64,000 bases of DNA from Escherichia phage vB_EcoM_KWBSE43-6: the sequence record NC_048186.1; one strand, written 5' to 3'. The position numbers and the translations under genes are program-made. A model generated the notes under the pieces. The model ran no database searches and was not told the origin of the DNA. It saw nothing but the letters and a program-made list of their open reading frames with translations. Below, one piece after another: positions 35,462 to 38,306 of the stretch. Position 1 is the stretch's first letter. The number at the start of each line of letters is the position of its first letter.

Positions 35462-35722
35462 ATGGCTTGTGCGTCATCTATTCCGAAAATGCTTATCCTG
35501 AAATGGTATGAGCACAGTATTTATGCTCGCATCAAATCAGCTGCGAAAGAGGGTCGAAAAACGATCGAATTATTCCGTCCTTGCGCATCCTCCAAAGCGC
35601 ATCGCGATACATTCGTCTTACTGCGTGAATTGGAACGACTCGGCATCAAAATCGAACCTATGCCATGCAGTAACCCGATGGTCAATCTCTTCGTTCTGAG
35701 CAATTTTGAGAATTTGGAATGA
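35462..35722 (+). CDS. hypothetical protein, 86 aa
   Basis: ATG 35462. Confidence 0.5.
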   Translation: MACASSIPKMLILKWYEHSIYARIKSAAKEGRKTIELFRPCASSKAHRDTFVLLRELERLGIKIEPMPCSNPMVNLFVLSNFENLE

Positions 35723-36162
35723 ATACGATTATCCTCATAACTGGTTCGCGTTCTATTACGGAGCGCGACAAAATCTTTGAAAAGTTAGACGAACTTTCTC
35801 ATACAGATTCCGTTTGTAATCTGTATCATCCGTGCGATACCCTATTGATCGCTGGGGAGGCTGTCGGCGTCGATACGATCTGCAAAGATTGGGCTGAATC
35901 CAGAGGGGTGACTTATCTCGGGATGCCTATCCCCGATGAATACTTCGCTACATATGGGAAAGGGGCTGGAAACAAACGCAACCAGGACATGTTAGACAAG
36001 GCGTTGGAGTTATCACAGAAATACAAGGCGGAGATACTGCCTCTGGCTTTCTGGGACGGTTCATCGACTGGTACGCAGGATATGATCAAACGAATCAACA
36101 AAGCAGGGTTGCATTGTAAGGTCATGCTCTTGGGTAAGCCAAAAACCAAACGCCTTCTGTAA
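35719..36162 (+). CDS. SLOG-like (YpsA/DUF2493-type) Rossmann-fold protein, 147 aa
   Basis: N-terminal ILITGSRS strand-loop, central IAGEAVGVD glycine loop, C-terminal WDGSSTGT; pattern recalled from SLOG family. Confidence 0.45.
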   Translation: MNTIILITGSRSITERDKIFEKLDELSHTDSVCNLYHPCDTLLIAGEAVGVDTICKDWAESRGVTYLGMPIPDEYFATYGKGAGNKRNQDMLDKALELSQKYKAEILPLAFWDGSSTGTQDMIKRINKAGLHCKVMLLGKPKTKRLL

Positions 36163-36185: not shown

Positions 36186-36353
36186 ATGATCATTTTTCAA
36201 CTGTTTTGCTATTTGTTCACTCTGTACTTTCTGGTTGCTGTCGGTTATGAAACCTTCCGTGACCTGGCATCGAGCCAGTATGCGTCCAAACTGGTTTATG
36301 CTAAGAAATTTGCTGTCCGCTTCTGGAGCAATTTTCTGTATCGCCTCCCCTGA
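36186..36353 (+). CDS. small membrane protein, 55 aa
   Basis: ATG 36186 with GGAGA upstream; N-terminal hydrophobic helix; not in ORF track. Confidence 0.35.
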   Translation: MIIFQLFCYLFTLYFLVAVGYETFRDLASSQYASKLVYAKKFAVRFWSNFLYRLP

Positions 36354-36354
36354 T

Positions 36355-36383
36355 TTAAATACCCCCATCAATTGGGGGTATTT
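36355..36383 (+). promoter_or_regulatory. late-promoter-like box TTAAATA inside an 11-bp palindrome abutting the start codon
   Basis: Arms AAATACCCCCA 36357-36367 and TGGGGGTATTT 36373-36383, 5-nt loop; ATG 36388. Confidence 0.5.
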
Positions 36384-36387
36384 TCTT

Positions 36388-37116
36388 ATGAACGCACAAA
36401 TTTATGACGCCCTTGAACAAGGCAATGCATTTAACAATCCTCTCCCGGGATTCTCTGCTACTTCTCAGACGTTAATCACCAGTGGCCAACAAAGTATAGC
36501 TGGTATTACAAGCATCCCGGATACGTCCGTTCAGGCGGCGATAACCGCTGGTGGTTTGACTCCTGCTAAACTCAATACAATGAACACCATGTACGGGACT
36601 GCCAACACCGGGATCGGGACTCTGAATTCTTATGGTGACCAGACCGTTAATGAGGCATACAATAGGATCGGAACTTCAGTATCCTATAAATCCGGCCTCA
36701 AAAGTATTGAACGAGAACCCACCAACTGTGATTTGATTAACAACGCATTCGGTGTTGTACAGACACTTGGTCGTCAATGGTTGACTGCAATGGAGGATGC
36801 CTTATCTCCAATAACAGACAAAGTTCAAGAACTGTATGATCTGGCCAAACAAGGCGCGGCGGCGGGGCTGGCCAAAATACAGGCATTAGCCTCACAGGTC
36901 AACGGATTAATCAATGACGCTGTAGCAAAGGTGAATGGTGTTATTCAGAACATCACTGATGGGATAGCTGCTGAGTTAGCTCATATTGAAGATATGGTGA
37001 AGAAGTGTCTTAATTTCTCCTTTGCTAATGTTCTTGGCGAATGGGCAAAAGATCTTTGCGCAGGCGGTGTCATCAACAATATCGGTTCTAATGATCTGAA
37101 AAATGCCCTGAAATAA
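36388..37116 (+). CDS. hypothetical late protein, 242 aa, coiled-coil-rich (possible virion component)
   Basis: ATG 36388; same palindromic late element as two tail-spike genes. Confidence 0.6.
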   Translation: MNAQIYDALEQGNAFNNPLPGFSATSQTLITSGQQSIAGITSIPDTSVQAAITAGGLTPAKLNTMNTMYGTANTGIGTLNSYGDQTVNEAYNRIGTSVSYKSGLKSIEREPTNCDLINNAFGVVQTLGRQWLTAMEDALSPITDKVQELYDLAKQGAAAGLAKIQALASQVNGLINDAVAKVNGVIQNITDGIAAELAHIEDMVKKCLNFSFANVLGEWAKDLCAGGVINNIGSNDLKNALK

Positions 37117-37767
37117 TCAGGGCACAGTCCTTGCTGGCAGAACTCCCACTGGCTCAATACCTTCCACCAGGAGGGAGTTCACGCCTACATCGCTCAACCT
37201 AATCCATATCTTCCCACCAGGCTTAATTTCAAAAACGTTCATTTCATTTCCAACCGCTTCATTATTCACAAATACACCTTGTGTTGCGATCCTGATAGGC
37301 TTCTTCGTGTTGTTTGTGATTTGAAATGTAACAGTTATATCCGTGGTCAGATTAACTCCCTGTTTCATGGTGTAGCGTTTTATTTTGTCGTAGAATGATG
37401 GATTGAATGTGATGATGATGCTGTTGTTCTGTGAGTAATAAATACTTGCTGACAAGTAAGGAATTTTGCCTTCTTCCCCTTTGCGTAAAAGAGGGATGGT
37501 GGTTTTCCAGTATGGTCGCAAAGTGTCTTTATTGTCATCAAAACAACCGACAGGCTGGAGATTTTGGAAACTTTGAAACAAAATAGTGGCCTCATCCAGC
37601 ATGGATTTTTCACATTTGTTGCTGTCTGTTGAAATGGTTACTGGTACAACACGGACATCAGTATCCCAGAGGTCACTAACGGAAATGATGGGCGTGACGA
37701 AAATACGGCAACTTGTCAATACAAGTACCATAAAAATCATCACAATCCATCTTCTGATTCCGCGCAT
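37117..37767 (-). CDS. predicted lipoprotein, 216 aa
   Basis: Minus ATG at 37765-37767; signal peptide MRGIRRWIVMIFMVLVLTSC with lipobox LTSC; stop abuts stop of converging plus gene. Confidence 0.6.
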   Translation of the reverse strand: MRGIRRWIVMIFMVLVLTSCRIFVTPIISVSDLWDTDVRVVPVTISTDSNKCEKSMLDEATILFQSFQNLQPVGCFDDNKDTLRPYWKTTIPLLRKGEEGKIPYLSASIYYSQNNSIIITFNPSFYDKIKRYTMKQGVNLTTDITVTFQITNNTKKPIRIATQGVFVNNEAVGNEMNVFEIKPGGKIWIRLSDVGVNSLLVEGIEPVGVLPARTVP

Positions 37768-37805
37768 CAGGGACACAATTAATCTCCACAGCAAAGGTGC
37801 TAACA

Positions 37806-38306
37806 ATGTCTACTTCAGTCCAATTCAAACATGACAACCCAAATTATGCAGCATCCGATAAGTGGCGCTTAACTATCGGTGATCTGATATTGTTATCCCG
37901 CTCTGTACACGATTTTAGCATACCAGGCGTGTATTCCGAGGGCATCGATGGGCCTTCGCCCGGTTCAGTGCTCAACACGATCCCTTCTGAACGTTTAACA
38001 TATGATCCCATCGTATTTACGTTCGTTATCGATGAGGATTGGGTAAACTGGGAAACCATCTACAACTGGATAGCCAGCAACGCCGCCGCTGATATGGCTG
38101 TTAGTAAAGACATCACCATAGAATTACTCAACAACATGAACCGCCCGGTTGGCCTGCAACTTCTGTTGGAAGAAGCACGTCCAACTGCACTGGACAACGT
38201 TCTTGTTGATGTGGACGCTTCTGTTCCCCAATTAGTTACAACGGTGACTTTCAAGTATCTGAAACTGACACCGACCCGTGTCGTACGTGAAATTGATAAA
38301 GAATGA
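37806..38306 (+). CDS. hypothetical protein, 166 aa
   Basis: ATG 37806; diverges from lipoprotein gene across a 38-bp spacer. Confidence 0.55.
   Translation: MSTSVQFKHDNPNYAASDKWRLTIGDLILLSRSVHDFSIPGVYSEGIDGPSPGSVLNTIPSERLTYDPIVFTFVIDEDWVNWETIYNWIASNAAADMAVSKDITIELLNNMNRPVGLQLLLEEARPTALDNVLVDVDASVPQLVTTVTFKYLKLTPTRVVREIDKE

Follow-up and report, generated by a model that had tools for sequence, protein, structure and literature searches.

Results

The locus and its SLOG gene

We analysed a window of 64,000 nucleotides from Escherichia phage vB_EcoM_KWBSE43-6 (NC_048186.1) and focused on a gene that encodes a stand-alone SLOG-domain protein of 147 amino acids (aa), referred to below as the SLOG protein (Table 1). 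The gene is one of a series of small genes that separate the major capsid gene from the tail genes. This region is 98% identical to Klebsiella phage phi1_175010 (Taipeivirus, Ackermannviridae), and the window is phage DNA. Comparison with the ortholog of phage May gave a ratio of nonsynonymous to synonymous substitution rates of 0.09, and the antisense strand of the gene is riddled with stop codons in the same register. This is a genuine gene, not a chance reading frame, and purifying selection on it is strong.

Table 1. Features of the SLOG locus. Positions refer to the 64,000-nucleotide window; residue counts were made over 132 diverse family representatives.
Feature	Position	Strand	Observation
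SLOG protein gene, 147 aa, YAcAr/DUF2493, stand-alone	35719..36162	+	ATG-to-TAA open reading frame (ORF), 147 codons
G9-S10-R11 loop after strand 1	35743..35751	+	G and R in 130/132; matches the G-S/T/A-R motif by which DprA binds single-stranded DNA (ssDNA)
G46-E-A48-V-G50-V-D52 loop after strand 2 (GxAxGxD)	35854..35874	+	G46, G50 and D52 in 132/132; A48 in 120/132
G80-K-G-A83-G84-N-K-R87-N88-Q-D-M91, long helix after strand 3	35956..35991	+	helix 73-102 in the model
W112-D-G-S-S116-T-G118-T119 loop after strand 4 (SxGT)	36052..36075	+	G118 in 132/132, T119 in 128, S116 in 117, W112 in 107
G139-K-P-K-T-K-R-L-L147, basic clade-specific C-terminal tail	36133..36159	+	invariant in 21 orthologs down to 47% identity
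Upstream 86-aa gene	35462..35722	+	ATGA overlap with the SLOG start at 35719-35722; conserved Ackermannviridae neighbour
55-aa ORF, last gene of the unit	36186..36353	+	ORF call; hydrophobic N-terminus (MIIFQLFCYLFTLYFLVAVGY...)
Intrinsic-terminator-like hairpin, 11-bp stem, U-rich tail	36357..36387	+	minimum free energy -17.2 kcal/mol, z = -3.4; closes the unit
DUF7217 (PF23854) structural gene	ORF 36235-37116, true start M52 at 36388	+	293-aa mechanical ORF over-extends

Family membership and fold

A first-pass annotation had assigned the protein to the SLOG superfamily as a DUF2493-type member. Both the profile score and the predicted structure upheld this assignment. The Pfam model PF10686, which spans only residues 4-67 of the protein, matched with 41.8 bits against a curated gathering cut-off of 28.2 (E = 9.4e-11). 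The predicted structure is the Rossmann-like three-layer alpha/beta sandwich of the SLOG superfamily, built on a five-stranded parallel sheet. As expected for SLOG domains, in this model strand 1 is followed by G9-S10-R11 and strand 3 by helix 73-102, which bears the invariant R87-N88. The 60 structural matches listed comprised SLOG and other Rossmann-like domains, and the profile and structure searches that had been suggested as a check placed the protein in SLOG and in no unrelated family. The three motifs that had been quoted are all present. ILITGSRS occupies residues 5-12, IAGEAVGVD residues 44-52 and WDGSSTGT residues 112-119; the last had been called C-terminal, which is not strictly so, as a helix, a strand and a 9-residue tail come after it. 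Scans against NCBIfam and PADLOC gave zero matches, and a search of the PDB with the single SLOG sequence returned only noise.

The family is very large. An exhaustive search with a profile of the orthologs found 18,884 cluster representatives at E ≤ 0.001 and 2,548 at E ≤ 1e-10, the clusters being counted at 50% identity. A word-indexed search with the family profile gave the same picture. Among the matches listed, the members are mostly stand-alone proteins of 113-145 aa. The longer relatives are mostly tandem duplications of the domain (the metagenomic members P0037, P0038 and P0171), and in P0160 a YAcAr domain is joined to a second, more DprA-like SLOG domain with Y-L-D-R-N and RSGT motifs. 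The Salmonella phage orthologs are named 'YspA cpYpsA-related SLOG domain-containing protein' in UniRef. The SLOG protein is an ortholog within an already catalogued family, and its novelty is modest for this reason. The only new leads are an invariant C-terminal tail and a coupled upstream partner, both described below.

The positions conserved across the family fall mainly in three loops and one helix (Table 1). On the helix after strand 3, R87 and N88 were found in all 132 representatives, A83 and G84 in 128 and M91 in 127. Further conserved positions are W58, W76 and K81 (the latter two on this helix), and A110, D113 and G114 around the SxGT loop. The SLOG protein carries all of the family-wide invariants G9, R11, G46, A48, G50, D52, A83, G84, R87, N88, M91, S116, G118 and T119. 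The sole one that it does not keep is W76, which is Phe.

Three traits set the Ackermannviridae clade apart from the wider YAcAr/DUF2493 family: its core is acidic, the helix after strand 3 is longer, and the protein ends in a basic, invariant tail. The gene occurs in phages of at least six host genera (Salmonella, Escherichia, Klebsiella, Dickeya, Serratia and Erwinia) and looks like a core gene of the Ackermannviridae. The Taipeivirus proteins also carry an insertion at residues 27-40 (window 35797-35838, + strand; SHTDSVCNLYHPCD) with two Cys and two His, which was modelled with low confidence. It is 4 residues shorter in the Taipeivirus relatives P0003 and P0004 and absent from the Kuttervirus and Limestonevirus orthologs.

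Relationship to DprA

DprA/Smf is the ssDNA-binding recombination mediator of natural transformation. When a profile of 101 family members was compared with all PDB sequences, DprA proteins came first, led by those of Helicobacter pylori (4LJK/4LJR/5MLL, E ~0.009) and Streptococcus pneumoniae (3UQZ, 0.02). The alignment spans G-[ST]-R and SGxAxG[VI]D, with a weaker piece at the SxGT loop. A Pfam scan of each of these 101 members at E ≤ 1 matched YAcAr in all 101, DprA (PF02481) in 55 (best 1.2e-8), YpsA in 4, cpYpsA in 4 and LOG in 2. Likewise, about a quarter of the top family-profile matches listed have a precomputed PF02481 match. Judged by sequence, DprA proteins are the closest characterised relatives of the SLOG protein.

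In the H. pylori DprA dimer, ssDNA is held through one of its bases, which enters a pocket (Wang et al., PMC3950713). The signatures proposed for ssDNA binding by DprA are G-S/T/A-R and F/L/Y-x-x-R-N/D, which were contrasted with the PGGxGTxxE motif of LOG proteins (PMC3950713). The first signature is present in the SLOG protein, where G9-S10-R11 aligns with G-T-R of H. pylori and with G-S-R of S. pneumoniae and E. coli DprA. The G46-D52 loop follows the DprA pattern SGxAxG[IV]D and aligns with 'SGGALGVD' and 'SGLAKGID' of DprA proteins and with 'SGLARGID' of E. coli Smf; the SxGT loop was aligned with 'ESDGT' of H. pylori DprA. For the second signature, R87-N88 is invariant and resembles the DprA R-N in motif pattern and helix position only.

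LOG proteins (PF03641) are cytokinin-activating phosphoribohydrolases. Their PGGxGTxxE motif is not kept in the corresponding stretch D113-G-S-S-T-G118-T119-Q-D-M122, in which the position of the catalytic Glu is taken by Met122. With the alignment anchored on the shared G-T, 90 of the 132 representatives have Met at position 122, which is never a conserved acid; position 121 can be D, H or N. This replacement makes a LOG-type mechanism unlikely.

The basic C-terminal tail

The tail GKPKTKRLL is also seen in the family members P0001-P0035 and is absent from the wider family. In phage LIMEstone1 the peptide is kept despite synonymous changes in its codons. Its predicted local distance difference test scores are low, and it is predicted to be flexible. 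In a search for a docking motif common to several phage proteins, no other C-terminal tail resembling it was found in the window or in the remaining ~96 kb of the closest genome, and it is unique in the genome. Members of the family are typically basic, with a median isoelectric point (pI) of 8.97 and 66% of them above 8. The SLOG protein departs from this with a core pI of 5.6, and four of its positive charges sit in the tail. The tail may serve as a DNA-binding arm, a docking peptide or a ClpX-type degron.

Transcription unit and neighbouring genes

The overlap of the SLOG start with the stop of the 86-aa gene suggests translational coupling. The 86-aa gene was found in 263 phage records, nearly all of them from Ackermannviridae, and it adjoins the SLOG gene wherever coordinates were compared. 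The predicted fold of its product resembles small nucleic-acid-binding domains (Smr/R3H). The 55-aa ORF that follows the SLOG gene has an annotated counterpart in phage May (gp167) and another in LIMEstone1 (ORF130), each matching it in size and position. Terminators are annotated in these two phages at the place that matches the hairpin. The hairpin was missed by a consensus terminator scan, presumably because its stem absorbs part of the T-run. In LIMEstone1 a putative early promoter lies three genes upstream of the SLOG homolog. The SLOG gene probably belongs to an early or middle transcription unit. Elsewhere in the genome, a full T4-like set of replication and recombination genes is annotated, and no Macro, NADAR, Nudix or ADP-ribose enzyme is.

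The DUF7217 gene is a separate unit past the hairpin, and its relatives in FelixO1-like phages are 24-31% identical. It shares a reading frame with the SLOG gene, with two in-frame stops between them (TAA at 36160 and TGA at 36187). Proteomics of LIMEstone1 confirmed the capsid protein, DUF7217 and gp3 in the virion; the SLOG homolog was not among the confirmed proteins. Judging from this relative, the SLOG protein is not a virion component.

Genomic context in other phages and plasmids

The neighbours of the gene in other phages and in plasmids are mostly DNA or RNA enzymes. In PhiW-14 the homolog lies between the clamp-loader/RegA genes and MazG/DexA, in a Vibrio phage it follows a superfamily 3 (SF3) helicase and a C5 methylase, and in a Rhodobacter phage it is found among MazG, a nucleoside hydrolase, helix-turn-helix (HTH) proteins and ThyX. 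The Seuratvirus homolog sits amid small genes of no assigned function. A plasmid search with the SLOG protein gave 7 distant matches in mixed contexts: beside a toprim protein and a methylase-helicase, near recA, or near a NAMPT-domain gene.

For a census of neighbours we took 139 proteins that flank the gene at 49 non-redundant viral loci, and 25 families were listed from them. The census revealed no dominant partner. The families include the Gp23 capsid protein (four times), HAD_SAK_2 (three times), four DNA methylases, and DNA polymerase A, RNA ligase, Thg1 and ParB (twice each). Families linked to nicotinamide adenine dinucleotide were rare (one nicotinamide mononucleotide transporter and one DUF4326), and Macro, NADAR, Nudix, TIR and SIR2 were absent from the 25 families listed. 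The Gp23-type (T4-type) major capsid gene adjoins the stand-alone SLOG gene in 4 of the 49 loci; in the window the capsid gene is ~4 kb upstream. HAD_SAK_2 is an RNA-repair domain protein, and it adjoins the SLOG gene in 3 of the 49 loci.

Discussion

Our preferred reading, which we hold tentatively, is that the SLOG protein is a trimmed DprA: a minimal, single-domain and non-catalytic binder of ssDNA or another nucleic acid. It was proposed because the same motifs in DprA grip one flipped-out base of ssDNA. Nucleic-acid binding is favoured by the affinity to DprA in sequence and in pocket motifs. It is also favoured because the family is basic, as is the tail, because the coupled partner and the known fusions are of nucleic-acid type, and because the gene appears to be a core gene. 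In the proposed mechanism, the G-S-R loop, the GxAxGxD loop, R87-N88 and the SxGT loop would form one conserved pocket that holds a nucleotide moiety. Probably dimeric, the protein would bind ssDNA in intermediates of phage replication or recombination. DprA needs to dimerise, and the tandem-duplicated members P0037, P0038 and P0171 hint at a dimeric unit in this family as well. The Ackermannviridae proteins would have gained an acidic domain core and the invariant, flexible tail, which may act as an extra anchor for nucleic acid or for a partner. The protein is probably made together with the overlapping 86-aa protein, with which it might also function.

Several findings weigh against the trimmed-DprA reading. 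In hhalign and HMMER comparisons with E. coli Smf, only the N-terminal half aligned, and a profile of the C-terminal half found no match. The SLOG protein itself did not match PF02481 even at E ≤ 10 (curated cut-off 29.6 bits), and the family members with printed PF02481 scores reached 16.8-27.6 bits, all under this cut-off. In the second DprA signature, the residue three positions before the Arg is an invariant Gly (Gly84) and not the aromatic platform. The protein is also much smaller, 147 aa in a single domain with a core of ~125 aa versus ~205 aa for the DprA domain, and it lacks the SAM and DML1/winged-helix domains that flank the latter.

One extension of the trimmed-DprA reading concerns host defence, and we consider it rather improbable. 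Stand-alone YAcAr proteins would be a widespread phage 'mini-DprA' that coats or caps ssDNA intermediates of replication and recombination and hides them from host defences that sense these, such as ShosTA or Hachiman-type systems, or that serves as a decoy for a DprA-like antitoxin. In the Ackermannviridae, the tail would dock to a conserved partner from host or phage. ShosTA has a DprA-like antitoxin, ShosA, which is also its sensor; ShosA was placed with DprA/Smf among the nearest known systems. If this were true, the protein would be a counter-defence factor acting through ssDNA and not through a small-molecule signal.

The main competitor is binding of a free nucleotide signal. The first-pass annotation had proposed that the protein could sequester a host signalling nucleotide as a stand-alone sponge against Thoeris or CBASS, an idea that is not new, because Iyer et al. 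2022 (PMC9503650) had already predicted that viral SLOG domains, present in 7%, 19% and 31% of small, medium and jumbo phages, sense or degrade immune signals derived from ADP-ribose (ADPr). These authors (Iyer, Burroughs, Anantharaman and Aravind) described the viral domains as experimentally uncharacterised (PMC9503650), and we found no later experimental report on a phage SLOG protein, whether as a sponge or otherwise, in the literature. On this account the pocket would bind an ADP-ribose-derived or other second messenger, such as the cyclic ADP-ribose (cADPR) isomers of Thoeris, and the protein would sequester it or cleave its N-glycosidic bond. We found no specific support for the proposal, though nothing refutes it. 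The SLOG domain of ThsA, the 3'cADPR sensor of type I Thoeris, belongs to a separate clade, STALD (PMC7272460). It forms a fusion with a SIR2 effector, and electrophoretic mobility shift assays showed no DNA binding for it; the phage protein stands alone, with no SIR2 or TIR fusion or operon partner in its neighbourhood. The Pfam scan of the 101 members revealed no sequence affinity to STALD; the family is nearest to DprA, with only 4 members matching the YpsA model against 55 for DprA. YpsA of Bacillus subtilis also stands alone as a SLOG protein and has been implicated in the inhibition of cell division; it is 13% identical to the phage protein and is encoded on the chromosomes of Gram-positive bacteria. 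The missing LOG Glu counts against LOG-like hydrolysis of a signal, and Macro, NADAR, Nudix, TIR or SIR2 partners are found neither among the 25 census families listed nor in the genome annotation. Tad1, Tad2 and Acb2 are alike in the proposed role, being small stand-alone phage proteins that remove an immune signal, but they have demonstrated ligands and unrelated folds, and none of them was among the 60 structural matches listed. Moreover, conservation as a core gene across phages of at least six host genera is unusual for counter-defence, as anti-defence genes are typically patchy. Signal interception is possible at a lower probability than the trimmed-DprA reading and remains its serious rival, ahead of a nucleotide-modifying enzyme. 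The latter, an improbable alternative, would be an N-glycosidase or transglycosylase of non-LOG type that acts on free nucleotides or DNA bases and shapes the nucleotide pool or aids DNA modification. Where members of the TIR-DrHyd-SLOG class are active, they act on N-glycosidic bonds by hydrolysis or exchange (PMC9503650), and the polar residues D52, R87, N88, D113, S116 and T119 are invariant, but the same invariant residues are common to the non-catalytic DprA, and the LOG Glu is missing here too. Homologs occur in PhiW-14, Ackermannviridae and Seuratvirus, which we take to be lineages with modified DNA, and the neighbours in other genomes include MazG, a nucleoside hydrolase, ThyX, nucleoside deoxyribosyltransferase-like proteins and DNA methylases. 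Against this, the nucleotide-metabolism and putative modification genes lie tens of kb from the SLOG gene, and the family is far more widely spread than any single DNA modification.

Two other readings are effectively excluded. Binding of guanosine triphosphate (GTP), which we regard as hardly credible, would follow from the label 'GTP-binding domain' of PHROG 289, which matched with E = 9e-34 and whose name recurs in many GenBank records. The protein has no Walker A motif (GxxxxGK[ST]), searches of Pfam, NCBIfam and structures gave no GTPase match, and the structural neighbours listed are not P-loop nucleoside triphosphatase domains. The label was rejected, as there is no P-loop and the name comes from inherited annotation and a fused gene call; it is a case of annotation creep. 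The phrog_289 profile has 500 columns, of which the SLOG protein matches columns 22-146 and DUF7217 columns 242-500, so that DUF7217 is mislabelled 'GTP-binding domain' in pharokka-annotated records through the same profile. The best viral structural match was a 475-aa protein of Salmonella phage 38 (BFVD A0A0N7CDB8), whose length is approximately that of SLOG, a linker and DUF7217 together, and it is probably because of this fused call that phrog_289 spans the unrelated DUF7217 as well. In the PhiW-14 record, the name goes back to two entries, a 'putative GTP-binding protein' of phiEco32 and a 'putative guanylate...'. The same fused call, together with the position of the gene between capsid and tail genes, the reading frame shared with DUF7217 and the Gp23-type capsid neighbours in a few loci, would fit a virion-associated protein that is linked or fused to DUF7217 and delivered with the DNA. 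Iyer et al. (PMC9503650) suggested packaging for some ADPr-processing proteins whose genes lie among those for morphogenesis. We consider this reading very improbable as well: proteomics of LIMEstone1 did not confirm the SLOG homolog, two in-frame stops, a small ORF and a strong terminator hairpin part the SLOG gene from DUF7217, and DUF7217 occurs in FelixO1-like phages, which are not among the SLOG matches listed. A functional link to DUF7217 was rejected on the in-frame stops, the terminator, the structural status of DUF7217 alone and its occurrence in FelixO1-like phages.

SLOG domains have been reported in fusion with HNH, exonuclease, superfamily 1 (SF1) helicase, HTH and guanylate kinase domains (PMC9503650), and one is fused to the SF1B helicase HelB of ICP1. 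The YAcAr family, with its 18,884 clusters in giant viruses as well as phages, is among the commonest phage protein domains for which no tested function was found, and three incompatible database names circulate for it ('GTP-binding domain', 'DprA-like' and 'SLOG/DUF2493'). A choice between ssDNA handling and immune-signal interception would settle a published prediction and correct a widespread mis-annotation. The same choice would show whether the Ackermannviridae carry a built-in counter to signalling defences. This viral family counts among its members phages of Klebsiella, Salmonella and E. coli like those employed for therapy and biocontrol.

Downstream of the DUF7217 gene, a gene for a DUF7424 (PF24199) protein lies on the opposite strand (37117-37806, -) between two virion genes. 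Its equivalent in LIMEstone1 is annotated with a putative signal peptide.
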